This document shows, one piece after another, positions 19,079 through 53,875 of a stretch of 64,000 nucleotides of DNA. This DNA comes from Minisyncoccota bacterium (GTDB lineage Bacteria > Patescibacteriota > Minisyncoccia > Phycocordibacterales > UBA9973). The position numbers and the translations under genes were made by a program. The stretch lies in NCBI GenBank assembly GCA_041648595.1, contig JBAZOQ010000002.1, positions 10,446-74,445 of the forward strand, written 5' to 3'. Below the pieces are notes generated by a model. That model was not told the DNA's origin. It saw only the letters and a program-made list of their open reading frames with translations, and did not search any database. The stretch's first letter is position 1; each line of letters opens with the position of its first letter.

Positions 19079-21091
19079 ATGTGCTATATTAAAAGAGTGA
19101 AAAAAGAAATTAAAAAAATAAATAATATAGAACAAGGTGTCATCTCTATATCCTCAAAAGGTACTGGATATGTAAAAACTCCTAATTTCGAAGAAGATCC
19201 AGAAATTAATTTTAAAGATCTAAATACAGCGCTTCATGGTGATACTGTTGAAATTACATTAAATGGAAAAGGAAATGGACGCCTTACAGCAAAAGTATCA
19301 AAAATAATATCTCGTGTGAAAATAGGTTTTTCTGGGGTTCTAGAAAAAGATCTTTCGACTTCACTCAAGACAGGAAATAATAATTATTTTTTAAAACCAG
19401 ATGATACAAAAATGTACACTGATATTTTGATACCAGAAAAAATGTTAAATGGGGCCAAAGTTGGTCAAAAAGTTTATGCAGAAATGACACTATGGAAAGA
19501 TTCACAAAAAGCACCCGAAGGAAAAATAATAAAAGTTCTAGGGCAACCAGGAGAAAATAACGCAGAAATGTATGCTATTGCAATGGAAAAAGGTTTTGAT
19601 AGTGATTTTCCTCAAAAAGTAGAAGAAGAAGCAAAAAAAATATCCGCCAAAGAAGGCGAACTAGCTTCTGGCTGGAAAGAAGAAATTACGAAACGTAAAG
19701 ACTTTAGAAAAACTTTAACATTTACAATTGATCCAGAAGATGCAAAAGATTTTGATGATGCTATTTCTTTTCGAATTCTCCCCCCTCTCCTTGATAAGGA
19801 GAGGGGGCTAGGGGGTGAGGTCTACGAGATAGGTATTCACATAGCAGATGTATCACATTATGTAAAAATAGGAAGTGAACTTGATAAGGAGGCAAAAAAT
19901 AGGGGTACTTCCGTATACTTAGTAGACAGAACTATCCCCATGCTCCCGGAAGCGCTTTCAAATGACTTGTGTTCTTTGGTACCAAATAAAGACAGACTGA
20001 CTATGAGCGCGGTTTTTATCGTCGATAAAAACGCGCAAGTAAAAAAGGAGTGGTATGGACGCACAATAATACATTCTCAAAAAAGATTTTCATATGAAGA
20101 AGCAGAAGAATCAATAAAAAAAGAAGAAATGCCACTGCATAAAGAACTTTCTATTTTAAACAGTTTAGCAAAAAAACTTACAAAAGAAAGATTTGCAAAT
20201 GGTGCTATATCTCTAGAACAAGAAGAAGTAAAATTTATTTTAGATAAAAATGGAGTACCTATAAAAGTAATAAAAAAAGAAAGAGGTGATTCTAATAAAT
20301 TAATTGAGGAATTCATGTTACTAGCAAATAAAAAAATTGCTGAAACTATTTCAAGGGGTACAAAAAAAGATGGTGGTGTTTTTGTATACCGAATACATGA
20401 CAATCCAAGCAAAGAAAAAATGACAGATTTAGCATTTTTCTTACGAGGATTAGGACATAAAATATCTCTAATAGATGGTGTAATACCAACAAAAGAAATA
20501 AATGCCCTCTTAAAAAATCTAGAAGGTAAAAACGAAGAAAATACGGTAAATCGTGCAGTAATACGTTCTATGGCAAAAGCAATTTATTCTACAAAAAATG
20601 TAGGACACTATGGTCTAGCTTTTGAATATTATGCTCATTTTACATCACCTATTAGACGATATCCAGATATAGTAGTACATAGACTTTTAACAGATTATCT
20701 AAAAAAATCAAAAGTCGGCAAGGAAAAACTAAATATTTATGAAGAAATTTCAAGACATGCATCGGAACGAGAAAAATATGCTTCTGATGCTGAACGAGCA
20801 TCTATAAAATATAAACAAGTTGAGTATATGTCTTCTCGTATATCACAAATATTCAATGGCACAGTAAGTGGAGCAACAGAATGGGGCATATATGTAGAGG
20901 AAATAGAAACAAAATGTGAAGGACTCGTACGTGTAAAAGATATGAGTGATGATTTTTATATTTTTAATGAAAAAAAATTAGAATTAATTGGACAGAAAAA
21001 AAAGAAAAAATACCGTTTAGGTGACAATGTAAAAATAAAAGTAAAAAGTGTTGATTTGGAAAGAAAAACAATAGATTATGTATTAGTATGA
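19079..21091 (+). CDS. rnr: Ribonuclease R / RNase II family exoribonuclease
   Basis: RNB catalytic block DRTIPMLPEALSNDLCSLVP and a C-terminal S1 domain. Carries an in-frame repeat-encoded insertion PPLLDKERGLGGEV. Confidence 0.9.
   Translation: MCYIKRVKKEIKKINNIEQGVISISSKGTGYVKTPNFEEDPEINFKDLNTALHGDTVEITLNGKGNGRLTAKVSKIISRVKIGFSGVLEKDLSTSLKTGNNNYFLKPDDTKMYTDILIPEKMLNGAKVGQKVYAEMTLWKDSQKAPEGKIIKVLGQPGENNAEMYAIAMEKGFDSDFPQKVEEEAKKISAKEGELASGWKEEITKRKDFRKTLTFTIDPEDAKDFDDAISFRILPPLLDKERGLGGEVYEIGIHIADVSHYVKIGSELDKEAKNRGTSVYLVDRTIPMLPEALSNDLCSLVPNKDRLTMSAVFIVDKNAQVKKEWYGRTIIHSQKRFSYEEAEESIKKEEMPLHKELSILNSLAKKLTKERFANGAISLEQEEVKFILDKNGVPIKVIKKERGDSNKLIEEFMLLANKKIAETISRGTKKDGGVFVYRIHDNPSKEKMTDLAFFLRGLGHKISLIDGVIPTKEINALLKNLEGKNEENTVNRAVIRSMAKAIYSTKNVGHYGLAFEYYAHFTSPIRRYPDIVVHRLLTDYLKKSKVGKEKLNIYEEISRHASEREKYASDAERASIKYKQVEYMSSRISQIFNGTVSGATEWGIYVEEIETKCEGLVRVKDMSDDFYIFNEKKLELIGQKKKKKYRLGDNVKIKVKSVDLERKTIDYVLV
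19779..19821. repeat. GC-rich palindromic element (family P1: CCCCTCTCCTT-NNN-AAGGAGAGGGG...GGGGTGAGGT) inserted in-frame inside rnr
   Basis: CCCCCTCTCCTTGATAAGGAGAGGGGGCTAGGGGGTGAGGT. The same core is at 27921, 47488, 47706 and 53817. Confidence 0.8.
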
Positions 21092-23280: not shown

Positions 23281-23366
23281 TAAAAAACCCTTTCTATAAA
23301 AATGAAAAGAAAAATTTAGTTTATTCTTTTTCAGAATACATCTTCATTATAAAAAAGTCAACAAAT

Positions 23367-23400
23367 TCCCCCATATACGCCATGGCTGATATGAGGGTAA
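23367..23400. repeat. Hairpin repeat TCCCCCATATACGCCATGG-CTGATATGAGGGTAA (degenerate copy) downstream of the Cas2-like gene
   Basis: Homologous to 23811-23844. Confidence 0.7.
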
Positions 23401-23415
23401 TTTGTTAGAATCTCT

Positions 23416-23793
23416 TTACTTTTTTAGATAAGATTTAGCCAATTTAAATGTTTTAAAATTATCTCCTATTTTTATCTCTTTCAAATAATCTAAAAAATCT
23501 TTTGGTAGTGGAGAAGGCCCAACCCAAACACTTTTTTGAATCATTATATAACCAAATTTTATTAGTTGTCTTCGAAACCAATCTCTTTCTTTTTTCTTAT
23601 CAGATGGAATGTCATACATCACGATCAAATTTTTTGAAGAATCTTTATCAAAAGGTGAAGAAAAAGTAATATAATAAAACTTTCTTTTTCTATTTTTTGT
23701 TTTTGCACGACTTTCTCTACCTCTCGAGAAAATAGGAATACCAAAAGAATTTACTTCTATTCCTTTATAATATAATTTCTTTTTAAAACCCAT
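23416..23793 (-). CDS. Standalone Cas2-like (VapD/Cas2 fold) small protein
   Basis: LIVMYDIPSDKKKERDWFRRQLIKFGYIMIQKSVWVG aligns with the Cas2 YDV...RLRKV...G.RVQ.SVFE blocks. It is a paralogue of the C-terminal half of the 33078..33656 product. No cas1 or CRISPR array nearby. Confidence 0.5.
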   Translation of the reverse strand: MGFKKKLYYKGIEVNSFGIPIFSRGRESRAKTKNRKRKFYYITFSSPFDKDSSKNLIVMYDIPSDKKKERDWFRRQLIKFGYIMIQKSVWVGPSPLPKDFLDYLKEIKIGDNFKTFKLAKSYLKK

Positions 23794-23810
23794 ATATAAA
23801 CTATATCACA

Positions 23811-23844
23811 TTACCCCCATATACGCCATGGTGTATATGGGGGT
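23811..23844. repeat. Hairpin repeat ACCCCCATATA-CGCCATGGTG-TATATGGGGGTAA (perfect 10-bp stem) upstream of the Cas2-like gene
   Basis: Read directly. The loop contains CCATGG. Confidence 0.7.
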
Positions 23845-23882
23845 AAATACAATAAAAAAATAATTACTTATTTCAATAATTT

Positions 23883-26147
23883 TTATTTTGCAATTGCGGT
23901 GGCTTCGTCGAGTTTTACGGAGAGAAGTTTTGAGGCACCATCAGAACCTACTGTGACACCATATAAAATACCAGCTCGAGACATCGTTTCCCTGTTATGG
24001 GTAACAACTATAAGTTGAGAATGATGTGAAAGTTTTTCTAACATATCTCCATATTTACGAGAATTTGCTTCATCGAGCGCTGCATCAGTCTCATCAAGAA
24101 CTAAAAATGGTGGTGGATTCACTTGCGACATAGCAAAAAGAAGAGCAATAGATGTAAGTGATCTCTCTCCACCTGAAAGTGCATTAAGTTCTTTTACTTT
24201 TTTATGAGGAAGCGAAACGTTAATTTCAATACCTTGTTCGAAAACAATTTCTTCTTTATCTCCTGCCTGCGCAGACAAGTCTTCTTCTAATTCTTCTTCT
24301 CCTTTCTTTTTTTTGTTTTCAATAACAATAGATAAATGTCCTTCTCCTCCACCAAACATTAAAGCGAAAAAATTATTAAATTCAATATTTATTTTTTTAA
24401 TACCTTCTTTAAATTCTACATCAATTTTCTGTTTCAGGTCTGCCATAAGATTGTGGAGCGCTTCTATGCTTACAGCTAAATCTTCCATTTCTTTTGCTAA
24501 AAAATTGTCCCTTTGAAAAACTTCTTCAAATTCTTTTATTACTTCTGCTCCACCACCCAAACCAGCATCTTCTAATTTTATTTTAATGCGTTCAATTTTA
24601 CGTTTTAATTCTTCTTGTATATTTCTATCTATAATTTCATCTATTTCAAAATTCTTATAAGATAATATTTCATTACCAATAAGTGCTGAGCCTTCTTTAA
24701 TCTCATTCTCAAAAGCCTCTATTTCTTTAGTTAAATTTCCTTCTTTTATCAAAACAAGCTCTAAAGCAGAAGCCAATTCTTGATGTCTAACTCTAAAATT
24801 AAACCTTTCTTTTTCTTTTAAATGTAAATTCTCATTATCTTGATTAATTTCCTTTTTTAATATTTCTATATTTTCAATAATCTTATTTTCTTCTTCTTTG
24901 ATATTCTGCATTCCAACTAAAATTTCTTGCTGATTTTTTCTTAAAAGTTCTAATTCAGGATTTGAAGTTAAATTTAGATTCTGCAGAGAATCTTCTATAG
25001 AAACTTTTGGTAAAAATTCATTTACAATATCCTTTATGTGTAAAAGAATATTTTTAATATCTGATAAATCTTCTTTATTTATAGCTTCATTGATAGAACT
25101 ATTTATATCATTAAATATTAATTTAACTTTTTCTTCTGAAATTATTACAGTAGTTTCGGGCATTTTTCTCTCTTTTCTTTTCTCTTCCATTTCTACCATC
25201 CCTTCAATCCTTCCTAATTTACGTTCTACTTCACTCTTAATTCCTCGGATCTCATATGTCTTTTTTTCCAATATTTTTAATTCTTTTTCTTTTTCACTTT
25301 CTTCTTTTATACCAATTTCTTCAACAGAAGAAATTTTTTTTTTCGTATTTTCTAATTCCAAAGAAATTTTTTCTTTTTCCTTTAAAAAAGAAGCTTGTTC
25401 TTTATCTAAATAAGCACTCTCTTTTTTAAGATATTCTTTATAGAGAGACAACAGTGTCACTTGTAATTCTTTTGCTTTTTCAAATTTATCTACTTGTTTT
25501 TTAAGAAAATTTAAATGAGGTGCATTTTCTCTACGTAAAAGTGAAACTTCTTTCATGTTGTTGGCAGTTCTTTCAAGCTTACGTTGTGATTCTTTTATTT
25601 TATATTGATAAATTTTAAGTCCAAGTGCATCTTCTATCATTTCTCTTCTGTCTTTAGATGTGGCATTTAAAATTCTATCTGCTTCACCTTGTGAAATAAT
25701 ATGATGTCCAGATGAACCAATATTTACAGAAGACAAAAGATTATTAATATCTTTTAATCTTACTTCAGAACCATTTAGAATGTATTTATTTAGTCCATCA
25801 GAATAAACTTCACGCGAAATCGAAATAACATCATAATTTAAATTAATATTTTCGCCAGTTTCATTAGAAAGTTTAAAAATCTTATCAGAATTATCAAAAT
25901 ATATTGTAGCAGTAGCACGTGAACTCTTTGGTAAACTTTTAGATCCTTTAAAAATAAGATCAGACCCAGAAGATCCTCTCATTGATTTTATTGATTGTTC
26001 CCCTAATACAAAACGAATTGCTTCTACTACATTTGATTTACCAGATCCATTTGGACCTACAATAGAAACAATAGAATTCTGAAACTCTAAAACTGTTTTT
26101 TTAGAAAAAGATTTAAACCCATTTATCTCAAGATTCTTAAGTCGCAT
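23883..26147 (-). CDS. smc: SMC-family chromosome segregation ATPase, short form (754 aa)
   Basis: N-terminal Walker A GPNGSGKSN. C-terminal LSGGERSLTSIALLFAM signature with a Walker B/D-loop. Long coiled coils. Confidence 0.85.
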   Translation of the reverse strand: MRLKNLEINGFKSFSKKTVLEFQNSIVSIVGPNGSGKSNVVEAIRFVLGEQSIKSMRGSSGSDLIFKGSKSLPKSSRATATIYFDNSDKIFKLSNETGENINLNYDVISISREVYSDGLNKYILNGSEVRLKDINNLLSSVNIGSSGHHIISQGEADRILNATSKDRREMIEDALGLKIYQYKIKESQRKLERTANNMKEVSLLRRENAPHLNFLKKQVDKFEKAKELQVTLLSLYKEYLKKESAYLDKEQASFLKEKEKISLELENTKKKISSVEEIGIKEESEKEKELKILEKKTYEIRGIKSEVERKLGRIEGMVEMEEKRKERKMPETTVIISEEKVKLIFNDINSSINEAINKEDLSDIKNILLHIKDIVNEFLPKVSIEDSLQNLNLTSNPELELLRKNQQEILVGMQNIKEEENKIIENIEILKKEINQDNENLHLKEKERFNFRVRHQELASALELVLIKEGNLTKEIEAFENEIKEGSALIGNEILSYKNFEIDEIIDRNIQEELKRKIERIKIKLEDAGLGGGAEVIKEFEEVFQRDNFLAKEMEDLAVSIEALHNLMADLKQKIDVEFKEGIKKINIEFNNFFALMFGGGEGHLSIVIENKKKKGEEELEEDLSAQAGDKEEIVFEQGIEINVSLPHKKVKELNALSGGERSLTSIALLFAMSQVNPPPFLVLDETDAALDEANSRKYGDMLEKLSHHSQLIVVTHNRETMSRAGILYGVTVGSDGASKLLSVKLDEATAIAK

Positions 26148-26223
26148 ATTTATCCGCCTAAATTTTTAGAATTATAATATTTTTAATCATTTTACTTTAT
26201 TTTTGTGAAAAATTTTGGCGGAT

Positions 26224-26919
26224 TTATTCCATCCAATTTTTTATTTTTAATGCATTAAGGGCTGCAGTCTGTTCTGCCTCTTGTTTTGATTTTCCTTTAC
26301 CTTCAGCAATTAAATCAGGACCAAATAAAATACCAACTGTAAAATGTTTATCATGATCAGGCCCTGATTCATGTAAAACTTTATAAAAAGGAGTAAATCC
26401 AACAAATTCTTGTGCTTTCTCTTGTACTAAACTTTTTGCATCACGCCAAAGTTTTTTAGAAACAATTTCCTCTGTATGAGGTAATAAAGTTGTAATTAAA
26501 AATTTATTTACAACATCATAACCTTGATCTAAATAAACTGCCCCTACGTATGCTTCAAAAGTATTGGCTAGTATATATTGTCTTGCTTTCCCATTATCTT
26601 TAGCTTCACCTTTAGATAAAAGCAAAAAATCATTCATTCCGATCTCCAAAGCAACTTCAGAAATTATAATAGCATTTACAAGAGCTGAACGGATTGCTGT
26701 CAATTCTCCTTCTGTAAAATTTGGATATTTTTTATATATAAAATCAGTAACAACAAGCTCTAACACAGCATCACCTAAAAATTCCAAACGTTCATTATGA
26801 GAAAGAGATAATCCTCCATTTTCATTTATGTAAGAACGGTGAATAAAAGCTTGCTTAAGCAAATTTTTATCTTTAAAACAAATCTTTGTATTTTTCTCAA
26901 AATTTGAAAATTCTATCAT
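26224..26919 (-). CDS. rnc: Ribonuclease III
   Basis: ERLEFLGDAVLELVV catalytic signature. dsRBD at the C-terminus. Confidence 0.92.
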   Translation of the reverse strand: MIEFSNFEKNTKICFKDKNLLKQAFIHRSYINENGGLSLSHNERLEFLGDAVLELVVTDFIYKKYPNFTEGELTAIRSALVNAIIISEVALEIGMNDFLLLSKGEAKDNGKARQYILANTFEAYVGAVYLDQGYDVVNKFLITTLLPHTEEIVSKKLWRDAKSLVQEKAQEFVGFTPFYKVLHESGPDHDKHFTVGILFGPDLIAEGKGKSKQEAEQTAALNALKIKNWME

Positions 26920-26943
26920 CTTTTACTTTTTATTTTATAAACT

Positions 26944-27905
26944 TTATAACTTTTTACTACTCAATATTTCAATCGCGCGAGTTATAAGTGGAATAATATC
27001 ATTATAAATACGAAGTTCTGGAATTTCAGAGAGTTTAAACCAACGAGCATTATCTAATCCACCAGAATCTTCAAGTTTTAATTCACAATATTTACTTTCT
27101 GCTAAAAAATACGTAACTTTTTTTAATGTCTTCCCTTTTTCTGGATGAGAAGCTACATATTCATTTTCACCAAGTTTTTCTTTTATAATAATATCAAGTC
27201 CAATTTCTTCCTTTATTTTTCTTATTGTGCCATCTTCTACGCTTTCATTCTCAATTTCTGGATTATCTCCTACTTTACCTTTTGACAAAGTCCAATAACC
27301 AAAAACATCATGCACTAATGCAAATAAAGTATCTTTATTCCCGCCAGAGGAACGGGCAGGCTTTTGAGCATAAATCAATGCTCCACCCAACTTTTCAACT
27401 GGTAATTTTGTAATATCTACTGGCTCATCGTTTTTTTTCTTTTTACTTATTTGTTCTTTTCCAGGTTCACCAATCTCTTTATAAACTGCACCAAGAACAC
27501 CATTAACAAATTTACTAGAATTTTCTCCACCAAAAGTTTTCGCTAATTCTATAGCTTCATTTATGGCAACCTTAGGAGGTACTTGATTCCTATCACCAAA
27601 AAGAAGTTCAGTCAACCCAATTCTTAAAATATTTCTATCAACAATAGATATCTTATCAAGTGGCCAATCCGGTGCAGCTTTTTTTATTATCTCATCAACT
27701 ACTGTAACTTTTCTTAAAATTTCTTCTACTAATGTAGCCACAAAAACATCATCCTCAAGGCCAGGAGCAAATTCTTTTAAATTTCTGTTTAAAGCTTCTT
27801 TTGTTTTTTCGTCAGTCCAAACATTATTCTGTCCTCCAGTAGTCATAAAATCCCACTCAAAAAGCGTTTGGAGAACTATTGATCTTGAAAGGTGCCTATT
27901 TGCCA
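26944..27905 (-). CDS. nusB: NusB-like antitermination domain fused to a C-terminal Nudix-hydrolase-like domain
   Basis: N-terminal ~150 aa are NusB-like. The C-terminus has [15 protein letters not shown]...RKIKEEIGL, resembling the Nudix box. The start is taken at the ATG of MANRHL. Confidence 0.6.
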
Positions 27906-27920
27906 TAAAAATTACCAATT

Positions 27921-27979
27921 CACCTCACCCCCGACCCCTCTCCTTAATAAGGAGAGGGGTGCCAAAGGCGGGGTGAGGT
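27921..27979. repeat. GC-rich nested palindromic element (family P1, full-length form CACCTCACCCCCGACCCCTCTCCTTAATAAGGAGAGGGGTGCCAAAGGCGGGGTGAGGT)
   Basis: Outer ACCTCACCCCGCC/GGCGGGGTGAGGT and inner CCCCTCTCCTT/AAGGAGAGGGG inverted repeats. Near-identical copy at 53817. Confidence 0.85.
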
Positions 27980-28207
27980 TTACTTTGATTCTGCTTTCTT
28001 TGCTTTTTCTTTCTTCTGCTTCTTTTCCATTTTTTTAACTAAATCCAACACCTTCATCCCGCGATAGAAACCGCAAGATGAGCAAACTGTATGCTGTTTT
28101 TTAAGAGTTTTACAATTTTCACATTTAGTAAAACCCGTACTCACCAATGCATGATGTGAACGTCTGTTTGCTGTATGTGATTTTGTATGTCTCATTCGTA
28201 CTACCAT
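27980..28207 (-). CDS. rpmF: 50S ribosomal protein L32
   Basis: Small basic protein with a CxxC...CxxC zinc ribbon and an RRSH N-terminal block. Confidence 0.8.
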   Translation of the reverse strand: MVVRMRHTKSHTANRRSHHALVSTGFTKCENCKTLKKQHTVCSSCGFYRGMKVLDLVKKMEKKQKKEKAKKAESK

Positions 28208-28288
28208 AATGTATTCTATACTAGCATATTAAAGATGAAAAGCAAAATTATACATTTAAGTAAACAAACTATTACACTGAAATACAAC

Positions 28289-28324
28289 TGTCTACTATCT
28301 TTTCATATGTAAAGATAGTAGACA
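28289..28324. repeat. Palindrome TGTCTACTATCTTT-TCATATGT-AAAGATAGTAGACA overlapping the RT stop codon
   Basis: 14-bp perfect stem. Related copy at 61944-61979. Confidence 0.7.
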
Positions 28325-29341
28325 CTAATACAATAGTGTTTAAGAACACCCATATAAGAAGCCATAATTTGTTGAAATTTATCTTTATTTATTTTCCCAA
28401 TAGCTAATTCTTTTCGTGCTTTTTTAAGTTTTTTAAAAATTCTTTTCTTGGTTCTCGTTCTTAATACAATTATGTTAGGTAAAATAACATAACCCACAAA
28501 ATCTATTCCTCGACTTAATTTTCTTATATAAACTTTATCTGGATGTAATTCAAGTTTTAAGTTTTGTTTTAAAAAAATTTCTATTTCTTTTTTGTATAAT
28601 GTAAGCAAATTTTCACTTTCAAAAATTAAGACAAAATCATCAGCATATCTAAAATAATGTTTAATTTTAAGTTTATGTTTTATAAATTGATCCAATTCAT
28701 TTAAATAAATATTTGCAAAAAGTTGGCTAGTTACATTACCCAAAGGAAGTCCAACATTTGGAAACTTCTCAAAACTTTTTAAAATTTTATTAATTAACCA
28801 TAATGTATCTTCGTCTGAAATCTTTTTTTTAATAAGCTCAAATAATATAATATGGTCTATATTTTCAAAAAATTTTCTAATATCACACTTTAAAACAAAA
28901 ACTGGCTGTTTCCAATTTTTACTTTCTTTACGTAAAGCTACAAAAAGTTTTTTTGATGCTTTGTGTGTCCCTTTTTTAAGTCGTGAAGAATATGAATGAA
29001 ATATAAAATGTTTATCAAAAATTTGATATAAAACTCTAAAAACTGCTTGATTTAACACTCTATCTCTAACCACCGCTTTATGTATATGTCTGCGTTTTGG
29101 ATCATACACAAAAAATGCTTGATACTTTGTAGGTTTATAAATTTTACTTATTAGTTCCTTATGTAAAGAAAATAAATTATTTTCTAAATTAAACTCAAAA
29201 TCTGCAACATCTATTTTTTTAGTTTTGCACTTTTTAAATTCCTTCCAAGCTTGAAGTAAATTTGATAAACTTACTACATTATGGAAAAAACTTTGAACAG
29301 CCCCCCCCCCCGACGCAATTTTTGATGTCCTTGTCGTTCAT
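28303..29341 (-). CDS. Diversity-generating retroelement reverse transcriptase (Brt-like); reading frame interrupted at a C11 homopolymer (29301-29311)
   Basis: LPLGNVTSQLFANIYL matches the DGR-RT hallmark (I/L)GxxxSQ motif 4. FRYADDFVLIF is the YADD active site. FFVYDPKRRHIHKAVVRDRVLNQAV and SYSSRLKKGTHKA align block by block with Bordetella Brt. The frame is open upstream of the annotated GTG back to 29337, but the ATG (MNDKDIKNCVGGG) is in another frame. Fusion needs C10 rather than C11. Confidence 0.85.
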
Positions 29342-29344
29342 AAG

Positions 29345-29674
29345 ATGAGAAAATTATATATCTATGTGTATATGATTGGCAACAAGTTACCAAAACGAGA
29401 TAAATTGGGAATTCATAGTTATATTGAAAAAGAATTTTTACAAACTTTTTCAACTTTAATAAACGCTTCACTTGAGCCAAAATCAGAAAAAATAACCTCA
29501 GTCAAAAAAGCGAGACTTCAAATAGAGACATTAAAACAATTATTCAGAACAGAATATGAAACAAAGATTATTACAGAAAAAGTATATTTAAATATAGAAT
29601 TAAAATTGCAAGAAATTTCTAAAATGACAAATGGTTGGTTAAAATATTTACAAACACAAAATCCGCCCAATTAA
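29345..29674 (+). CDS. Avd-like accessory variability determinant (four-helix-bundle protein, TIGR02436-like)
   Basis: 109 aa, basic. LPKRDKLGIHSYIEKEFLQTFSTLINASLE and C-terminal ISKMTNGWLKYL resemble the FPK-E-G...NIAEG and ML-GLIKSL blocks of bAvd-family proteins. Divergent from the RT. Confidence 0.55.
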   Translation: MRKLYIYVYMIGNKLPKRDKLGIHSYIEKEFLQTFSTLINASLEPKSEKITSVKKARLQIETLKQLFRTEYETKIITEKVYLNIELKLQEISKMTNGWLKYLQTQNPPN

Positions 29675-29694
29675 AATTGAAAGCGGATTTAAGT

Positions 29695-29817
29695 GAGAAA
29701 CTTCTGAACGGATACCATAACTAGAGTTCGAATTGTCCAGATTGTACCAATTCACATTGAACTTGTCGTTGTTCCAATTCGCGTTCGGAACATTACCATC
29801 CGAATTGCGAGAACCGT
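29695..29817 (-). other. DGR template repeat (TR)
   Basis: 123 bp aligned to VR at 30077-30198 with 15 core mismatches. Every one is a T in the plus strand of TR, i.e. an A in the minus coding sense. Non-A differences occur only at the IMH-like end (CTTC vs TTGC). Confidence 0.85.
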
Positions 29818-30017
29818 CCTATTACAAAAAATCATCCATTCCACCGACAAATCAATTACTTAATTTTCTGTGTTATCTCACAGTCGTGAGCAATATGTAG
29901 CATCATTACAAAATTGTATTATCTATGCTCAATTTTTTGCAAGCAGTTTCTTAATATGGCAAACTGTTATCTTAGTTTTAAGATCAGTTTATCAGCCAAA
30001 TATATTTTAACATAAAA

Positions 30018-30052
30018 AAATTGCGTTAGGTTTTTTAAAAACCTAACGCAAT
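30018..30052 (-). terminator. Perfect 15-bp hairpin TTGCGTTAGGTTTTT-TA-AAAAACCTAACGCAA downstream of the DGR target gene; terminator and/or DGR homing hairpin
   Basis: Followed by TTTTTTTATG in the minus-strand sense. Lies about 25 bp beyond the IMH end of VR. Confidence 0.6.
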
Positions 30053-30072
30053 AAAGATAAAAAGAAAAAAGA

Positions 30073-30807
30073 TTAAAGAGAAATTGCTGAACGGATACCA
30101 GAACTAGAGTTCGAACCGTCCAGATAGTACCAACTCACAAGGAACCCGACGCTGTCCCAATACGCGTTCGGAACATAACCATCCGAATAGCGAGAACCGG
30201 AACAGAAAGTAACACCTTTGATATCTAAATGATTTCCCGTTTCCGAGAAATACTTGATTTCAAGAATGATACGTTCCAAAACAGTGATTCCAATTTTCAT
30301 ATCAGCGTCAGCCTGCCTTGTTGATTTACCGAGATATTCAATGTCAGGTTCAATATCATCACGAACCCAAACAGCGTAATTGTCCGAAGACGTCCGTATA
30401 TTTGTTGGAATTGTCTTGTCTAAATCATCACTATAACGCCATGATTTAAAAATAGCTTTACAACAATCAAAGGCTTTGTTCATCGTCATACCTTTTGCGA
30501 TAAACAATAGACGCCAATTACCGTCAGGACGATTAGGAATGATAACTCTGCTGAAATCTACATCCCAATTGAAATGAGTTTTGTAAAATTTCTGCCATTC
30601 TTCACGAATATTGGCATACTCATCTACAATTGAGAAAACTTCTCGAAGCTTTTTTTTCAGCTCATTTTTGTGTCCGAGCCAATAATCAATTTGCACCTCA
30701 CTAAGTAATGTCGTTAAAAAGTCAACGATAAAACCAGCGAGAGAGCCAATTTTTTGCATTATTCCGCTAATGCTGAGCGTTTCAGATTTTGTCCCATGTT
30801 TTTTCAT
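30073..30807 (-). CDS. DGR target (variable) protein with a C-terminal C-type-lectin/FGE-like VR region; no signal peptide
   Basis: The C-terminal 40 aa (GVTFCSGSRYSDGYVPNAYWDSVGFLVSWYYLDGSNSSSGIRS) are encoded by VR. Adenine-containing TR codons map onto these positions. Confidence 0.8.
   Translation of the reverse strand: MKKHGTKSETLSISGIMQKIGSLAGFIVDFLTTLLSEVQIDYWLGHKNELKKKLREVFSIVDEYANIREEWQKFYKTHFNWDVDFSRVIIPNRPDGNWRLLFIAKGMTMNKAFDCCKAIFKSWRYSDDLDKTIPTNIRTSSDNYAVWVRDDIEPDIEYLGKSTRQADADMKIGITVLERIILEIKYFSETGNHLDIKGVTFCSGSRYSDGYVPNAYWDSVGFLVSWYYLDGSNSSSGIRSAISL
30077..30198 (-). other. DGR variable repeat (VR) at the 3' end of the target gene
   Basis: See the TR entry. It ends 2-5 nt before the target stop codon. 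Confidence 0.85.
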
Positions 30808-30954
30808 GGTATGTTCTCCTTTATTACAATGAACTAATTTTTGAGATCTTTGGATACGGCACTCATTATTCCGTTTCGTATATTATATCATATCCTAGAA
30901 AAAAAGCAAGTCTTTTTATTACCTATAAAATGCTATATAATTAAAGGACTTTTT

Positions 30955-32706
30955 ATGGAAAATAATATTGATAAATTACACAACTTAAGACATTCCTTAG
31001 CTCATCTTTTGGCTGCAGCTGTTTTGGAGATATACCCTGATACCAAAAATACAATCGGTCCTTCTATAGAAGATGGCTTTTATTATGATTTTGAATTCTC
31101 GTCTCCTATCTCTGATAAGAACTTACCAAAAATAGAAAAGAAAATGAAAGATATTTTGAAATCTTGGAAAAATTTTGAGAATGAGGAAAAAACTAAAAAG
31201 GAAGCAGAAAATCATTTCAAAAATAATGAATACAAAATAGAACTTATAAACGAAATTAATGAAAAAGGAGAAAAAATAACTTTCTATACTTGTGGAGCTT
31301 TTACAGATCTTTGCCGTGGTGGACATTTAGAAAATCCGAGTAAAGAAATAAGTCCAGATTCATTTAAATTAGATCGTGTAGCTGGGGCATATTGGCGTGG
31401 AGATGAAAAAAATAAAATGCTTACCCGCATTTACGGATTGGCTTTCGAAACAAAAGAAGAATTGGAGGCTTATGTGATACAACGAGAGGAGGCTCTAAAA
31501 AGAGACCATAAAAAAATCGGTAAGGAATTAGGATTATTTGCTTTTAGCCCTCTTGTTGGTTCAGGTCTTCCTCTATTTCTGCCAAAAGGTGAAATAATTT
31601 TTTACGAGCTGGAAAAATATATGCGTGAAGAAAAAGAAAAGCTTCATTATAAATTTGTCCATATACCCCATATTGCCAAAACAGAGCTTTACAAAAAAAG
31701 CGGTCACTTAGGAAAATATGATGCAATGATGCCAATTATGCAAGATGCTGAAGGCGATCAATATGTTATGAAAGCAATGAATTGTCCTCACCATTTTGAA
31801 ATCTATAATGCAGAACCCCATAGCTATCGTGATCTTCCTTATAGATTAGCCGAAACTACAACCGTTTATCGTAATGAGAAAAGCGGAGAATTGAGTGGGT
31901 TAGTTCGAGTCAAAGCTTTAACGCAAGATGACACACATCACTTTATTCGTCATGATCAAATCCAACAAGAAATTGAAATGATTCTAGGGTTAATGGATAA
32001 AGTTTATAAAAATTTTGGTTTCAAGGATTACACTGTGCAAATATCCATTCGCGATCCAAAAAATCCTGATAAATATTTCGGTGGGGATGAACTTTGGAAA
32101 GAATCTGAGAAAATACTTATCGACTCTGTAAAGAAATGGAACCGTCCTTACATAGTTACAGAAGGAGAAGCAGCTTTCTATGGGCCTAAGATAGATATAA
32201 TGGTGAAAGATTCGATTGGTCGTAATTGGCAATTGACTACGGTTCAACTTGATTTTAATCAACCAGAAAATTTTCATATGCGATATATAGGAGAAGATGG
32301 AAAAGAACATGCTCCTGCTGTGTTACATGTTGCAGTATTAGGTTCTATTGAACGTTTTATGGGAGTATTGATTGAACACTATGCCGGCGCCTTCCCTCTC
32401 TGGCTCTCACCAGTACAGGTGAAAGTAATCCCTGTGCGCACCAGCCACAACGAATACGCCAAAAAAGTTTTTGAATTATTGAAAGAGAACAACATCCGCG
32501 CGAAATTTGACGATGCCGAGGAAAACCTCGGAGGAAAAGTCCGCAATGCGAAAAACAATAAGATTCCTTATTGGATTGTTATAGGTGACAAGGAAATAGA
32601 AGCGAAAAAGGTTACCCTCGAATCTCGCGACAAAGGCCAGCTTGGACAGATATCAAAAGAAGAATTATTGAAAAAACTTTTGGAGGAAATAAAGAATAAG
32701 AAATAA
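30955..32706 (+). CDS. thrS: Threonyl-tRNA synthetase
   Basis: HSLAHLL editing-domain motif and class II aaRS motifs. The ORF track starts at an upstream TTG (30841); ATG at 30955 (MENNIDKL) preferred. Confidence 0.9.
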   Translation: MENNIDKLHNLRHSLAHLLAAAVLEIYPDTKNTIGPSIEDGFYYDFEFSSPISDKNLPKIEKKMKDILKSWKNFENEEKTKKEAENHFKNNEYKIELINEINEKGEKITFYTCGAFTDLCRGGHLENPSKEISPDSFKLDRVAGAYWRGDEKNKMLTRIYGLAFETKEELEAYVIQREEALKRDHKKIGKELGLFAFSPLVGSGLPLFLPKGEIIFYELEKYMREEKEKLHYKFVHIPHIAKTELYKKSGHLGKYDAMMPIMQDAEGDQYVMKAMNCPHHFEIYNAEPHSYRDLPYRLAETTTVYRNEKSGELSGLVRVKALTQDDTHHFIRHDQIQQEIEMILGLMDKVYKNFGFKDYTVQISIRDPKNPDKYFGGDELWKESEKILIDSVKKWNRPYIVTEGEAAFYGPKIDIMVKDSIGRNWQLTTVQLDFNQPENFHMRYIGEDGKEHAPAVLHVAVLGSIERFMGVLIEHYAGAFPLWLSPVQVKVIPVRTSHNEYAKKVFELLKENNIRAKFDDAEENLGGKVRNAKNNKIPYWIVIGDKEIEAKKVTLESRDKGQLGQISKEELLKKLLEEIKNKK

Positions 32707-32710
32707 AATT

Positions 32711-33016
32711 ATGCCAGAGGGTTATCACAAATTAGTTCGAGATAAAATTCCAGAACATTTAGATGCTAAAGGTATTTCCTATGAACAAACGACAGCTACA
32801 CCAGAAGAATACAGAAAAAGACTATTGGAAAAATTAGCTGAAGAAGTAAAAGAATTCCTTGATGCTCGCAATAGTGAGGAATTAGCTGATATTTTAGAAG
32901 TAATCGAAGCTCTTAAAAAATTGCCAAAATTTAAGAATGTAGAAGAAGTTAAAAAGAAAAAACTCGCAGAAAAAGGGGGATTTGAAAAAAGAGTAATTTT
33001 AAAGGGAAAAAAATAG
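32711..33016 (+). CDS. MazG-like all-alpha NTP pyrophosphohydrolase (small)
   Basis: KLVRDKIPE N-terminal motif and EELADILEVIEAL, typical of MazG/HisE-type NTP-PPases. Confidence 0.6.
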   Translation: MPEGYHKLVRDKIPEHLDAKGISYEQTTATPEEYRKRLLEKLAEEVKEFLDARNSEELADILEVIEALKKLPKFKNVEEVKKKKLAEKGGFEKRVILKGKK

Positions 33017-33054
33017 TTGTTTACCATATTGACGGTCGTTAGTTTGGTAAACAA
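33017..33054. repeat. Hairpin repeat TTGTTTACCA-TATTGACGGTCGTTAGTT-TGGTAAACAA downstream of the second Cas2-like gene (also acts as its terminator)
   Basis: 10-bp perfect stem, followed by CTATTTTTTTCCC on the minus strand. Homologous to 33666-33700. Confidence 0.7.
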
Positions 33055-33077
33055 TAAGGAAAGGAACATAAATCAGC

Positions 33078-33656
33078 CTATGCTATTTTATTTAAACTGC
33101 CCAATTTGCTAATTTCAAAAATTTCAACAAATTCTAAAATTTTAAGGTTTTCTAAGTCTTTTATAAAATCTGCCGGAATTTTTCCTTTCCCTACCCAAAC
33201 ACTTTGATGAACCATTTTAAACCCAAAATTTTTGATAACTTCCCTGAGCCAATTACGCTTTCTTCGCAACCTCTCGGGAATATCGAAACTTATTATAATA
33301 GAGCTACTTTCTTCGATTTTTTTCTCATAAAATCTAGTTGGTAAATTATTTCGAAGTTTACTAAGTTTATCTATTCCTTTACTAGAAATTGTAAATTTAT
33401 TATTTTCTGAATTTTCAATAAGACCATCATGTTTCATCTTAGATATAAATATGGTTAATCTTCTTTTTCTATCTTTTAAGATTTCCACTTGAGATTTTTT
33501 AGCTTCAGAAATTCTCCTGCGTTTTTGATACTCATATTCGATCTTACTTGAACCAGCCCCATAACCGGCAACTAAAACAGCACCAAAGAAATCAACTTGG
33601 GTCATTGTTCCATTATAAAGAAGTTCTAAAGCTTTTAGTAAAATTTTTCCTTTCAT
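33078..33656 (-). CDS. Winged-helix plus Cas2-like two-domain protein (PaaX-like architecture)
   Basis: N-terminal KILLKALELL...DGLIENSENNKFTISSKGIDKL is wHTH-like. The C-terminal IIISFDIPERLRRKRNWLREVIKNFGFKMVHQSVWVG is a paralogue of the 23416..23793 product. Start taken at the internal ATG (MKGKILL), because the upstream 19 codons are encoded by the flanking hairpin repeat. Confidence 0.5.
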   Translation of the reverse strand: MKGKILLKALELLYNGTMTQVDFFGAVLVAGYGAGSSKIEYEYQKRRRISEAKKSQVEILKDRKRRLTIFISKMKHDGLIENSENNKFTISSKGIDKLSKLRNNLPTRFYEKKIEESSSIIISFDIPERLRRKRNWLREVIKNFGFKMVHQSVWVGKGKIPADFIKDLENLKILEFVEIFEISKLGSLNKIA

Positions 33657-33665
33657 AACTTTAAG

Positions 33666-33700
33666 TTTACTACATTGACGACCGTTAGTATAGTAAACAA
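33666..33700. repeat. Hairpin repeat GTTTACTACA-TTGACGACCGTTAG-TATAGTAAAC between the gyrB stop and the Cas2-like gene start
   Basis: Same stem and loop family as 33017-33054 (loop TTGACGGTCGTTAG vs TTGACGACCGTTAG). Confidence 0.7.
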
Positions 33701-38536: not shown

Positions 38537-38632
38537 ATGAAAAAAATCGAATGGATTTTAATTATCTTAATAATTCTATTTGCAATATTAGGCCTTTATT
38601 TAGGGTGGCTAGATAATGGTCCTAGTTTTTAA
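38537..38632 (+). CDS. Candidate 31-aa single-TM micropeptide (MKKIEWILIILIILFAILGLYLGWLDNGPSF)
   Basis: Not in the ORF track because it is too short. Preceded by TTGCTATAAT (-10) at about 38520. Speculative. Confidence 0.25.
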   Translation: MKKIEWILIILIILFAILGLYLGWLDNGPSF

Positions 38633-40122
38633 TCTAATTCATTTAGGTGTTTCCAAATAGCATACATAGCATATGTATCAAGTTTACAGTAAGTCTTTAA
38701 ATGCTCAATCTTCTCTAGTGCTTCTTCTTTTGTATAAAAACCACTAACAATTTTATTCCATGCATCTGAAGCTGTAGCTCCTTCTTGTATGTCAAGAACT
38801 TTATAAGACAATTCTGGAGCAATCACTGGCAATATATATTTAATAGAAGTTTTACCCTTAAATTTTGGATGAATATAATATTGTTCAGAAAAAATATCCA
38901 TAAGGTCAATCATTCTAGAATTTATATTTTCTAGAGCTATTTTATATTCAGGATTTCTTTTTGCAAGATCCTTGTTTCTTCCCATTTCAAAACTCTTATT
39001 CCAAACAATAATAGACCCACTACTAGGTAATTTTTCTATAAGAGCTAAAATAAATTCTTCATCTGGATTTTTATTCTTAGTAAAAATAAATTCAGAATGT
39101 TTTGGTTCACTATTTTTATCTGAAAGTAAGTGCAAGGAAAATTGAAAAGTTATCTGATTATAGGGACTGAAACCAGTAAATCTTGGAATTCCTGCTGCAA
39201 AAGTTTCATAATCCAAGAAAGACAGAGGCATAATCATAATATCTAAAAAACTTTTAATTTCTTCTTTTTTTATAAATATTTTATTCAATTGTGTCGCTAT
39301 GACTTGATTTTTTTGTTTATCACTTAATGGGAAATCTTCTGGTACATCTTCAATAAGAAAAATACTACTATCAATCAATTCTTCCAATTTCTTTTTTGAC
39401 ATTCCAATACGAGAAATATCATGAACACTATAATCAGGTATGTGTGGATTTGAATAAGAAAAAGTAGTGCAATGAGAACTTCTACCACGAATAACACATT
39501 TACAAGGACCAAAAGGCTCTTTTTCCTCTGCTAAAAATTTTTGTGCAACTTTCATTTCTTCTTCAACTATGGGAATAATCCCAAAAACTCTTTCTGTAAA
39601 ATCTTCTTTCAAAAAAAGTTGATTTATATCAAGCTCAACACCCCTTACATATTCGTTATTAAATCTTACAAGAAATAATTTACCCATTGGTACATTTAAT
39701 TTTTTCAACACCAAATATTGAAAAGCTATATCATAACTATAAAGTTTATCTTTTGCCCCTTTGTCTTCCCCACTATTAGAGGCTTTGACTTCATATAAAT
39801 CATAAACCTGAGAATTTGAATTCCACACTAAAATATCACATATAGTTTTATATAAATCTGTTTCAAATACTGGTTGATAAATCACAGACGTTTTAGCTTT
39901 TATAAGTTTTTCTGTTTCTTCCATAGCGTCACCATCATCAACTAAAATACCATTTGGAAATAAATCTCGAGCAAGAATATCAACTTCATTACCTGTTTCT
40001 ATTATTCCTTGATCAAAAGCAGATAATGGTTCGGCAAAATAAATATCCGGCTTGTGTATCTTCAGCCAAGCATTCTTTGCACAGTCTTTCCATATGAGAA
40101 AATCAGTTTTGGTTAATTTCAT
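38629..40122 (-). CDS. DUF2779-like dual-nuclease protein (N-terminal PD-(D/E)xK, C-terminal DnaQ/RNase-H-like)
   Basis: YDLYEVK (D..E.K) motif N-terminally. LDYETFAAGIP exonuclease motif I C-terminally. 4-bp overlap with the upstream ATPase gene. Confidence 0.55.
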   Translation of the reverse strand: MKLTKTDFLIWKDCAKNAWLKIHKPDIYFAEPLSAFDQGIIETGNEVDILARDLFPNGILVDDGDAMEETEKLIKAKTSVIYQPVFETDLYKTICDILVWNSNSQVYDLYEVKASNSGEDKGAKDKLYSYDIAFQYLVLKKLNVPMGKLFLVRFNNEYVRGVELDINQLFLKEDFTERVFGIIPIVEEEMKVAQKFLAEEKEPFGPCKCVIRGRSSHCTTFSYSNPHIPDYSVHDISRIGMSKKKLEELIDSSIFLIEDVPEDFPLSDKQKNQVIATQLNKIFIKKEEIKSFLDIMIMPLSFLDYETFAAGIPRFTGFSPYNQITFQFSLHLLSDKNSEPKHSEFIFTKNKNPDEEFILALIEKLPSSGSIIVWNKSFEMGRNKDLAKRNPEYKIALENINSRMIDLMDIFSEQYYIHPKFKGKTSIKYILPVIAPELSYKVLDIQEGATASDAWNKIVSGFYTKEEALEKIEHLKTYCKLDTYAMYAIWKHLNELD

Positions 40123-41264
40123 ACAGTATTTATTTTTAATAAATCTTTTATGGCATCATCAAGTTTTTCAATTAATTCGATTTTTGTTTTCCTGTCTTCG
40201 GTTTTTATTGGATGAGCTATATTATGCCTAAGACGACTAACATAAGAAAGCTTCCATTTTATTGTATTATCATTACTATATTCTGTTTTATTTGATATTT
40301 TTGATAAAATAAATTTTTCAAAAACCTCTCCTTCTAATTTTGAATTATCTTTAACAAATTGATACAATTCGAGAAAATATGTTTTACTTGGTAATCTAAA
40401 AACCAAATAATTTATTTCTGATGAAGATTTGTAGGGCAAAGATCTTTCTTCTAAAATTTCTTTTACTTTTGTAGCATTATCCGTACCAGACCTATCAACC
40501 CTATAAATCTTAAAATCTTTTCCTAAATCAATAAAGTATGGATCATGTGTTGTGATAATCACCTTAATCTTTTCATTACTGTTTTCTACAAGGTCAATTA
40601 AGGAATTAAATAAGGTTTCTTTTAATTTGGGATGCAAATAAATTTCTGGTTCTTCAAACACTATATAAGTTAATTTGTTAGAAAACTTTTCCCCTTTTTT
40701 ACTACCTAAATATTTTAATAAAGAAGCTATAATTAATCTTTGTGTTCCTTGACCAACCTCTGACAATTTAATTCCCTCCTTATTAGAATAACAATCCTTG
40801 GTTGTTAAGGAATCAATCAACTTTTTTGCATAAACATCTTTTATTGCCTTTATATAATCATCATTTGTAATTGTATTAATTTTTGTTTTTGCTAAAAGTT
40901 CTGTTTTTTCAACACTAAATTTAGAAAATTCTAATGGCAATAGCTTATCAATATCTTTAACCGCGCTTGTTATGTATTCATCCTTGAAATCAACCTCAAG
41001 TAGCTCTCTTATTGCTAATCTAAATGGGTCTCCTTCAGCTCCAGTTTTAATTTCTACATCAGGCAAAACTCTTTCTGCCGGAATATTTATGACATTAATA
41101 TTGTCCTTCTCTAACTCTTCAATAATAACCTTAATAAGATTTGTTTTTCCTGCATTGTTTTCTCCAGCAAATATAGTAAATAATCCAAGCTCCAATTCTC
41201 CTATATCTTCAGTAAGACTACTGTCCTTTCTTTTTTTTATTGTAATTTTTAAATTTTTTATCAT
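40119..41264 (-). CDS. ABC-type (AAA_15/AAA_21, OLD/PtuA-like) ATPase with a C-terminal Rx4-6H (HEPN-like) motif
   Basis: Walker A GENNAGKTN, signature-like LSEVGQGTQRL, Walker B/D-loop IVFEEPEIYLHP, H-loop TTHD, and C-terminal RLRHNIAHP. Confidence 0.6.
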   Translation of the reverse strand: MIKNLKITIKKRKDSSLTEDIGELELGLFTIFAGENNAGKTNLIKVIIEELEKDNINVINIPAERVLPDVEIKTGAEGDPFRLAIRELLEVDFKDEYITSAVKDIDKLLPLEFSKFSVEKTELLAKTKINTITNDDYIKAIKDVYAKKLIDSLTTKDCYSNKEGIKLSEVGQGTQRLIIASLLKYLGSKKGEKFSNKLTYIVFEEPEIYLHPKLKETLFNSLIDLVENSNEKIKVIITTHDPYFIDLGKDFKIYRVDRSGTDNATKVKEILEERSLPYKSSSEINYLVFRLPSKTYFLELYQFVKDNSKLEGEVFEKFILSKISNKTEYSNDNTIKWKLSYVSRLRHNIAHPIKTEDRKTKIELIEKLDDAIKDLLKINTV

Positions 41265-41277
41265 ATTATTTATTTAA

Positions 41278-42060: not shown

Positions 42061-42062
42061 AT

Positions 42063-45869: not shown

Positions 45870-45944
45870 CCCGTTAGAAATTTCCATAAAATTCTTATTT
45901 TCTTCAAATTAAACTAATAAACTTGTATCCTATTATTTCTAACG
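45870..45944. mobile_element. Start-codon-associated element, copy b (terminal inverted repeats CCCGTTAGAAAT / ATTTCTAACGGG)
   Basis: Flanked by a TTCAT direct repeat (45865-45869 and 45945-45949). The left end abuts the gene ATG. Confidence 0.65.
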
Positions 45945-45958
45945 GGATTCATGAAGTT

Positions 45959-48554
<2,596 letters not shown>

Positions 48555-53816: not shown

Positions 53817-53875
53817 CACCTCACCCCCGTCCCCTCTCCTTATTAAGGAGAGGGGTGCCAAAGGCGGGGTGAAGT
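53817..53875. repeat. GC-rich nested palindromic element (P1 full-length) between pilT and pilC
   Basis: CACCTCACCCCCGTCCCCTCTCCTTATTAAGGAGAGGGGTGCCAAAGGCGGGGTGAAGT, about 95% identical to 27921-27979. Confidence 0.85.

Follow-up and report, generated by a model that had tools for sequence, protein, structure and literature searches.

Two small Cas2-fold genes of a Patescibacteria chromosome, each enclosed by its own palindrome pair, as candidate self-bracketing autoregulators

We analyzed a 64-kb chromosomal stretch with a G+C content of 30% (the window) from a member of the Patescibacteria, or candidate phyla radiation (contig JBAZOQ010000002.1), for two small genes, here called gene 1 and gene 2, each enclosed by two copies of a palindrome of its own (Table 1). 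The two proteins are each 100% identical to entries at NCBI from a metagenome-assembled genome (MAG) of 'Candidatus Paceibacterota', and their neighbors in the window are smc, rnc, gyrB, thrS, pheT and a PGA_cap/S11 peptidase gene. A previous reading of this DNA, hereafter the original prediction, had described the two open reading frames (ORFs) as paralogs lying next to smc and to gyrB/thrS, with no cas1, other cas gene or array of short palindromic repeats that are clustered and regularly interspaced (CRISPR) in the window. All of this held. Both ORFs are present, the annotation of the window ORFs gives the same neighbors, and BLASTP aligned gene 1 with the C-terminal domain of gene 2 at 36% identity over 61 amino acids (aa; E = 6e-15). 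No cas1 or other cas gene was found among the window ORFs scanned, the largest ORFs included, and a repeat search returned neither a CRISPR array nor a CRISPR-like repeat family in the 64 kb. An hmmsearch over all window ORFs returned gene 1 and gene 2 only, leaving no third PaaX_M-type family member in the window.

Both proteins were best matched in Pfam by PF20803, PaaX_M ('PaaX central Cas2-like domain'), with 51.6 bits (1e-13) for gene 1 and 40.1 bits (3.8e-10) for gene 2 at a cut-off of 24. This placed PaaX_M ahead of CRISPR_Cas2, which aligned with gene 1 at 3e-7 over positions 3-50 of 74 and scored 22.4 bits with gene 2, under its cut-off of 23.8. The AlphaFold model of gene 1 (mean predicted local distance difference test, pLDDT, 82.6) found its best Foldseek matches in Cas2 (5zyf/8pk1/5xvn), PaaX (8a39) and VapD (3ui3). 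That of gene 2 (mean pLDDT 75.9, falling to 51-56 in residues 1-40) shows helices and a wing in its N-terminal half and then the fold of gene 1, and it matched Escherichia coli PaaX 8a39 first (113 columns aligned), then Rv0674 (3kfw) and then Cas2 structures; the Foldseek probability for the leading Cas2 structures was 0.97-1.0, and Cas2 entries made up the majority of the best matches. PaaX_M was matched by all 66 gene 2 family members tested (66/66), and the N-termini of the same 66 proteins gave weak Pfam matches to winged-helix families only (DUF4364, HTH_45, Mrr_N, CggR_N). Gene 1 has no winged helix in its model; its N-terminus consists of a beta-hairpin (YKGxxVNxFGxP) followed by a basic linker (RKSRxKxxNRKR). 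With these results, the Cas2-like core seen in the original prediction is borne out by profile and structure matches alike, and its winged-helix extension of gene 2 is probable at the level of the fold. The family shares with Cas2 a beta1 motif 'YDI/FDIP' with a conserved Asp and a 'Q/H-x-SVW/F' strand, and neither family varies at the Asp of the Cas2-catalytic position (D61 of gene 1, D125 of gene 2).

PaaX acts as a repressor, and its operators are palindromes that overlap promoters. The PaaX structures from E. coli (8a39) and Mycobacterium tuberculosis (Rv0674, 3kfw) combine an N-terminal winged helix with the Cas2-like central domain PF20803, as gene 2 probably does. However, PaaX is a protein of about 300 aa with a further C-terminal domain, whereas the window proteins have 125-192 aa and end directly after the Cas2-like domain, with no Pfam match to PaaX_C in either. 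The PaaX equivalog TIGR02277 reached 21 bits against a cut-off of 264.55. PaaX also differs in controlling paa catabolic genes in response to phenylacetyl-CoA, none of which genes lie near the window genes, in having the winged helix that gene 1 lacks, and in its operators, which in the window bracket the regulator gene itself. The Cas2-like fold assignment is thus correct, and the proteins are neither CRISPR Cas2 proteins nor full PaaX orthologs.

Public databases are divided on these proteins. Many gene 1 homologs carry the name 'CRISPR-associated endonuclease Cas2' at NCBI because the TIGR01573 equivalog passes its cut-off, JGI gives these clusters the label Cas2 in some cases and 'DNA-binding transcriptional regulator PaaX' in others, and members of the gene 2 family are mostly 'hypothetical protein'. 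Taken at face value, the NCBI names would make the two genes genuine but orphaned Cas2 genes of CRISPR adaptation, remnants of lost CRISPR-Cas loci, and the TIGR01573 score of gene 1 (34.8 bits, cut-off 24.5) and the PADLOC matches, which were to Cas2 models only, agree with that. The TIGR01573 match, however, covers only positions 3-40 of the 96 in the profile, and PaaX_M scores higher and spans the whole domain. Cas2 is encoded beside cas1 and an array, neither of which accompanies the window genes, nor did we find cas1, any cas gene or an array in the syntenic relatives inspected. Cas2 also lacks the additional N-terminal DNA-binding-type domains seen here, and it matches the window proteins in sequence only over its first half. 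Hundreds of conserved, multi-copy and syntenic homologs lie amid housekeeping genes. An orphaned Cas2 is hardly credible on this evidence, and a CRISPR 'Cas2' function for gene 1 and gene 2 is almost certainly wrong. We observed that the window palindromes, at 32-36 bp, have a size typical of CRISPR repeats; a CRISPR array, however, consists of many repeats with spacers of ~30 bp, whereas here exactly two repeats enclose a gene of 0.4-0.6 kb.

The family is large. Homologs of gene 1 formed more than 1844 clusters, many of them 70-88% identical, and those of gene 2 formed 150; a profile search of 1.84 billion cluster representatives gave 1912 proteins at E <= 1e-3, mostly of 155-200 aa, a size that suggests that the two-domain form is the common one. 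Named sources were almost all Nomurabacteria, Paceibacterota or other Patescibacteria, and several genomes held 2-4 paralogs. Scans of IMG/VR with both family alignments yielded no viral relatives, a sequence search of the PDB with the gene 2 family profile returned only noise, and full-text literature searches returned nothing on this protein family or its paired palindromes.

In the window, each palindrome family has exactly two copies, when none would be expected by chance (100 shuffles). The upstream palindrome of gene 1 is centered ~35 bp before the ATG and the downstream one begins 9 nt past the stop codon; the two match at 28/32 positions in direct orientation. That each gene has its own repeat pair and that the pairs differ between loci had already been recognized, and two families of two copies are what we found. 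The elements had been described as stems with palindromic loops, but they are near-palindromic across their entire 32-36 bp. Likewise, the first copy reported for gene 1 is present, but it is not simply degenerate: it carries the half-site variant TATCAGCC in place of TATACGCC, and this variant recurs in many relatives.

We then compared 80 genomic loci of the gene 1 family and 80 metagenomic loci of the gene 2 family from Patescibacteria (designated by L numbers), which cover about 2% of each relative's genome. A palindrome was accepted with at least 12 of 16-17 pairs matched and at most 110 nt from the gene, a threshold that no more than a few percent of random windows drawn from these loci attained. 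Gene 1 family loci had an upstream palindrome in 56/79 cases and a downstream one in 39/79; the corresponding numbers for the gene 2 family were 62/78 and 68/79. The palindrome-gene-palindrome layout, described by the original prediction for two genes, recurs among the ~160 related loci, in from about half to more than four-fifths of them according to family and side. The core of the gene 1 family is (T)ACGCCATGGCGT(A), and in ~45 of the 56 loci with an upstream palindrome, one with this core stops 18-20 nt short of the ATG. The gene 2 family has the core GTTTACTATACTAACGGCCGTCAATATGGTAAAC, with an upstream palindrome that ends 7-10 nt before the ATG. In both, the position of the upstream palindrome relative to the ATG is constant to ~1-2 nt. 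The downstream copy lies 0-30 nt past the stop codon (0-28 nt in the gene 1 family) and in some relatives overlaps it (..SAMA* = TCAGCCATGGCGTAA). The outer arms vary between loci (GTTTAC, TTCTAC, TCTTAC, GTCCAC, GTATAC and others), and the two copies of one locus resemble each other more (identity 0.79 in the gene 1 family and 0.82 in the gene 2 family) than copies from different loci do (0.65 and 0.57, respectively). The layout recurs in divergent paralogs from the flanks, with palindrome pairs of their own that are quite different.

One genome (assembly MFWB01) holds two gene 1 family paralogs that are 95% identical in protein, L035 8601-8978 and L055 9992-10369. Their downstream palindromes are nearly identical and their upstream ones only ~70% alike, and the upstream copy of L055 is inverted relative to its downstream copy, so that the slightly asymmetric center can flip its orientation.

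The symmetry of the palindromes bears on the molecule that is recognized. The central 4-mer is self-complementary in 74-83% of the copies, against 6% by chance, and among arm mismatches read on the sense strand, G.T is not consistently more frequent than A.C. Because of this self-complementary center and the lack of a wobble bias, the palindromes look like sites of a two-fold symmetric protein on duplex DNA rather than RNA hairpins. An RNA-level mechanism would instead take them as hairpins that terminate or stabilize the transcript, or as substrates through which a Cas2/VapD-like endoribonuclease controls its own mRNA, and substrates of this kind had been among the earlier suggestions. All four window copies do fold stably as RNA (z -2.1 to -6.1), RNase activity is reported for relatives among Cas2 and VapD proteins (structure titles; PMC10491678), and the transcript of the gene would carry the downstream copy at its 3' end; in the window, a sense-strand T-run comes after that of gene 2. 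The upstream copy, on the other hand, lies at or before the predicted -10 box and start, which would place it outside the mRNA of its own gene, and the four central nucleotides that are so often self-complementary cannot pair in a hairpin. The gene 2-type hairpins of the window fold better on the antisense strand. A T-run followed only 7/39 downstream copies in the gene 1 family and 15/54 in the gene 2 family. Rfam at the gathering threshold matched a single tRNA of the window and none of the palindromes. Action at the RNA level is, on balance, quite unlikely. We also rejected a terminator role for the palindromes: T-runs occur after a minority of downstream copies, one copy of each pair is upstream in a promoter register, and the sequences are gene-specific. 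This speaks as well against the reservation, attached to the original prediction, that they could be ordinary terminators shared by unrelated genes.

Stand-alone proteins with the Cas2 fold outside CRISPR, as here, are also represented by the nucleases VapD and BPSL1038 (3ui3, 9kan, 7vxr; PMC10491678). VapD was among the lower-ranking structural matches, no VapD match was obtained for gene 1 or gene 2 in Pfam or NCBIfam, and VapD has a partner gene, whereas no small antitoxin-type partner ORF lies inside either palindrome-bounded unit of the window. The window proteins, moreover, have DNA-binding-type N-termini and an operator apparently embedded in the promoter, neither of which is described for VapD.

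The upstream palindromes are in close register with promoter-like sequences. Gene 1 family loci have, between palindrome and start codon, a TATAAT-like box that ends 6-7 nt before the ATG and often has TG upstream of it. Such a box (at least 5/6 matches, ending 5-9 nt before the ATG) was found at 63/79 gene 1 family loci compared with 29% of control ORFs, and only 2/79 loci had a motif resembling a Shine-Dalgarno sequence. In the gene 2 family, the palindrome itself supplies the box: its last five bases and the next base read TAnnnT in 33/40 upstream copies but in only 5/45 downstream copies (p = 1e-11), and TG in the extended -10 register was present in 31/40 upstream and 7/43 downstream copies (p = 2e-8). 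Since the -10 boxes lie 6-7 nt before the ATG, both genes most likely make leaderless mRNAs, to judge from this spacing, from promoters covered by the upstream palindrome or inside it. As far as sequence evidence goes, a dyad-symmetric site overlaps the -10/-35 region of each regulator's own promoter, and binding at a site under which the promoter lies should repress the gene. Among control ORFs of at least 120 aa from loci L001-L160, 24-29% had a TATAAT-like box 5-9 nt before the ATG and 6-7% a Shine-Dalgarno-like motif, rough figures from a control set that includes spurious ORFs. Leaderless-type starts appear to be common in these genomes.

The palindromes could also be generic features such as terminators or repetitive extragenic palindromic (REP)-like elements, or be bound by another host factor, and lie beside these genes incidentally. 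Other repeated hairpin families do adjoin unrelated genes of the window (CCCCTCTCCTTAATAAGGAGAGGGG with 5 copies and TATTCCCCTCTTGAGGGGTGGCTCGCTT with 3), and two orphan 36-bp palindromes occur in it as well (Table 1). Each of the two palindrome types, however, is confined to the surroundings of its own gene, both within the window and across 1.4 Mb of flanks from related loci; gene 1 family flanks (1.0 Mb) contained 2 further locus-specific palindromes and gene 2 family flanks (0.42 Mb) contained 0. The arms vary together with the locus in such a way that paired copies agree, the distance to the ATG is nearly fixed, and divergent subfamilies keep the layout with different palindromes. An incidental association is very improbable in the light of these four observations.

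The downstream copies lack the promoter features of the upstream ones in the comparison made for the gene 2 family. A role as promoter or operator of the next gene was considered for them and rejected, as the next start follows at variable distances and 37/59 gene 2 family loci have a convergent downstream neighbor. The centers of paired copies are ~438 bp apart in the gene 1 family and ~640 bp apart in the gene 2 family. The downstream copy is most likely a second, non-promoter operator that would act by looping or as a roadblock or insulator, and it is the least secure part of the model presented next.

The best-supported mechanism, and in our opinion the probable one, is a self-bracketing DNA-binding module with negative autoregulation. 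Gene 1 and gene 2 would be members of a large superfamily, known to date from Patescibacteria only, of small site-specific DNA-binding proteins in which the Cas2/PaaX_M ferredoxin-fold domain probably serves as the dimerization module, as in PaaX. DNA would be read by the N-terminal winged helix in gene 2 and by the beta-hairpin and basic arm in gene 1, and a symmetric dimer would bind the cognate palindrome of 32-36 bp. The -10 hexamer of the gene 2 family would be the palindrome's outer arm itself; in the gene 1 family, the palindrome would cover the -35 region and immediately adjoin the (extended) -10 box. Occupancy of the upstream site would shut off the protein's own gene. The downstream operator could cooperate with the upstream one through a loop of 0.44-0.64 kb that encloses the gene, or it could hold a protein roadblock that insulates the small unit from the surrounding housekeeping genes. 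The analysis establishes the fold, the family, the conserved palindrome pairs with their duplex-type symmetry, the overlap with the promoter and the contrast between the two copies; we infer protein binding to the flanking sites, its repressive sign, the leaderless start and the downstream role from sequence. Autoregulatory operators had been one of the possibilities named for these repeats; the overlap of the upstream copy with a conserved promoter and the duplex-DNA symmetry fit that proposal.

The CI repressor of phage lambda is translated from a leaderless mRNA and regulates its own promoter, and its gene lies between operators that loop together. It may be the nearest functional analogy, a leaderless autorepressor whose counterpart here could likewise loop its flanking operators. 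CI nevertheless has an unrelated fold and tripartite operators 2.4 kb apart that also control the lytic promoters, while the window units have single palindromes 0.44-0.64 kb apart and no other known regulated promoter.

Several observations weigh against the autoregulator model. Every functional step in it is one that we infer. Gene 1 has no recognized DNA-binding domain, and the invariant Asp at the Cas2-catalytic position of both families could point to an enzymatic role and not a purely structural one. Detectable sites lie only beside the protein's own gene and no physiological output is obvious, within the ~2% of each genome covered, beyond which remote targets may lie. In the window, gene 2 carries the TG motif on its downstream copy and not on the upstream one. 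As for the downstream copy, the convergent neighbor at 37 of 59 gene 2 family loci makes it something other than simply the operator of the next gene; center-to-center distances in the gene 1 family show no 10.5-bp helical phasing, and phasing in the gene 2 family is weak and broad (p = 0.016, uncorrected).

The invariant Asp also enters into another explanation, in which the palindrome-gene-palindrome unit is a mobile or recombining cassette, its palindromes are attC- or REP-like sites, and the Cas2-fold protein with its catalytic-type Asp is a site-specific nuclease or recombination factor. The distribution of the genes has features that would suit a cassette. There are several paralogs per genome, and 80 loci gave 74 distinct pairs of upstream and downstream neighbors. 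Gene 2 is missing in L006, where the gap between gyrB and thrS is only 3 nt, and no gene 2 match was obtained at L002, L003, L005, L006 or L009. In L008 and L010, a gene 1 homolog lies between thrS and rpmF and not between smc and the PGA_cap gene. The DNA of the 95%-identical paralogs of one genome agrees to ~96%, with a sharp end to this identity at the downstream palindrome's outer edge, and in L026 and L036, an extra palindrome together with the upstream one encloses non-homologous genes at the same genomic position.

Conserved gene order speaks for a resident gene 2, however. The order gyrB, gene 2, thrS is kept in ~35 loci, down to ~51% protein identity, and the closest gene 1 orthologs keep the order smc, gene 1, PGA_cap. 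Most paralogs of the same genome are only 59-73% identical, with no sign of recent bursts. No recombinase or transposase association and no relatives in viral contigs were found, and the empty sites examined, including the gyrB-thrS junction of L006, had neither target-site duplications nor solo palindromes. The upstream homology boundary of the 95%-identical pair lies inside the gene and not at the upstream palindrome, which fits gene conversion, and gene conversion between existing paralogs accounts equally well for this pair. The strict register of the upstream palindrome with the promoter and the promoter-specific differences between the copies are regulatory features. A mobile or recombining unit is therefore unlikely. 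The hairpin-ended mini-cassette of the original prediction is disfavored for gene 2 by its synteny and survives as a minority possibility for the gene 1 family.

REP/RAYT and IS200/IS605 elements offer a partial parallel, as they too have a small gene between cognate palindromes that differ among paralogous loci. They rely, however, on an HUH/Y1 protein and dispersed repeats. The window units have neither, with no HUH/Y1 transposase domain detected in gene 1 or gene 2 by Pfam or NCBIfam, and they have a repeat fused to the promoter and, for gene 2, a conserved synteny. We give a small chance to an autonomous element in which the Cas2-fold protein nicks or recombines the two flanking 32-36 bp palindromic direct repeats. 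If it were true, the cassette, or genes that come to lie between such repeats, could be duplicated, exchanged or excised. Such an element would be a Cas2-based counterpart to the Cas1-based casposons, and it would tie a Cas2-fold protein to the recognition of palindromes of CRISPR-repeat size, with a bearing on how the association of Cas2 with repeats arose in CRISPR evolution.

The two palindrome-enclosed stretches mentioned above, L026 4294-4949 and L036 3712-4471, are situated after folD and before a gene 1 paralog in two related genomes. By eye, the enclosed gene of L026 is an unannotated ORF of 187 aa and that of L036 an ORF of 219 aa resembling hydrolases of the HAD family, each between an extra gene 1-type palindrome and the upstream palindrome of the paralog.

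The window holds other elements of interest (Table 1). A diversity-generating retroelement occupies 28303-30807; ORF 30073-30807, probably the variable target, contains the second 122-nt repeat at its 3' end, and L006 and L010 lack the retroelement insert between thrS and rpmF. The two orphan palindromes, 33 kb apart, belong to the type that flanks distant gene 2 family members (L139, L142, L144, L154, L155). No gene with a PaaX_M domain lies beside them in the window, and they may represent either distant targets of a family protein whose gene lies elsewhere or what is left of a lost unit. The G+C-rich hairpins of the CCCCTCTCCTTAATAAGGAGAGGGG and TATTCCCCTCTTGAGGGGTGGCTCGCTT families have the look of terminators or REP-like elements and bear no relation to the Cas2-like genes; two of the CCCCTCTCCTTAATAAGGAGAGGGG copies are embedded in a 65-nt repeat of 95% identity. 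A probable defense or restriction island lies between pheS and the TerC gene. The 105-nt repeats are probably paralogous gene starts with their promoters, since the best two copies are at the 5' ends of two genes for T2SSE/PilB-like ATPases in a type IV pilus cluster.

Table 1. Positions of gene 1, gene 2, their associated sequences and other elements in the 64-kb window.
Feature	Position	Strand	Description
Gene 1	23416..23793	minus	125 aa; PaaX_M/Cas2 domain at residues 54-117
Gene 1 upstream palindrome (putative operator)	23811..23846		36 bp, near-perfect, TTACCCCCATATACGCCATGGTGTATATGGGGGTAA; 30-nt core at 23814-23843
Gene 1 predicted extended -10 box	23800..23808	minus	TGaTATAGT, 6 nt before the ATG
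Gene 1 downstream palindrome	23360..23406		Core at 23368-23401, with extra outer arms AACAAATT/AATTTGTT
Gene 2	33078..33656	minus	192 aa; predicted N-terminal winged helix-turn-helix, Cas2/PaaX_M domain at residues 119-190
Gene 2 upstream palindrome (putative operator)	33665..33698		34 bp, 8 nt before the ATG
Gene 2 predicted -10 box	33664-33669	minus	TAAACT, gene-proximal palindrome arm plus one base, 7 nt before the ATG
Gene 2 downstream palindrome	33019..33052		Begins 25 nt past the stop codon, 2 nt from the end of convergent ORF 32711-33016
Reverse transcriptase	28303-29109	minus	RVT_1, 2e-21
bAvd accessory gene	29345-29674	plus	Part of the diversity-generating retroelement
122-nt repeat pair	29695-29816 and 30078-30199		86% identity
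Orphan 36-bp palindromes	28289-28329, 61939-61979		TGTCTACTATCTTTTCATATGTAAAGATAGTAGACA and a 90% match
Hairpin family CCCCTCTCCTTAATAAGGAGAGGGG	19776-19806, 27929-27959, 47491-47521, 47703-47733, 53825-53855		Five copies, G+C-rich
Hairpin family TATTCCCCTCTTGAGGGGTGGCTCGCTT	52481, 55964, 56331		Three copies, G+C-rich
Genes of probable defense/restriction island	38629-43238		DUF2779 (497 aa), AAA_15/AAA_21 ATPase (381 aa), Tsp45I-type restriction enzyme (260 aa), Eco57I/N6 methylase (391 aa)
105-nt repeat family	45852-45956, 54919-55023, 58122-58226, 59835-59939		Four copies, 60-88% identity

Well over a thousand Patescibacteria proteins are named Cas2 and lie amid housekeeping genes without cas1 or an array, and counting such names leads to overestimates of CRISPR components across the candidate phyla radiation. 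To our knowledge, bacteria of this radiation have very few recognizable transcription factors. Miniature regulators present in several copies, with predictable cognate sites of 32-36 bp and operators embedded in promoters of leaderless mRNAs, would provide testable protein-DNA pairs in organisms that cannot be cultured. A second operator behind the stop codon would be a non-standard layout, one that may reveal insulation or looping or, less likely, a new kind of cassette. In these units, the Cas2 fold would be used together with specific palindromic repeats outside CRISPR.

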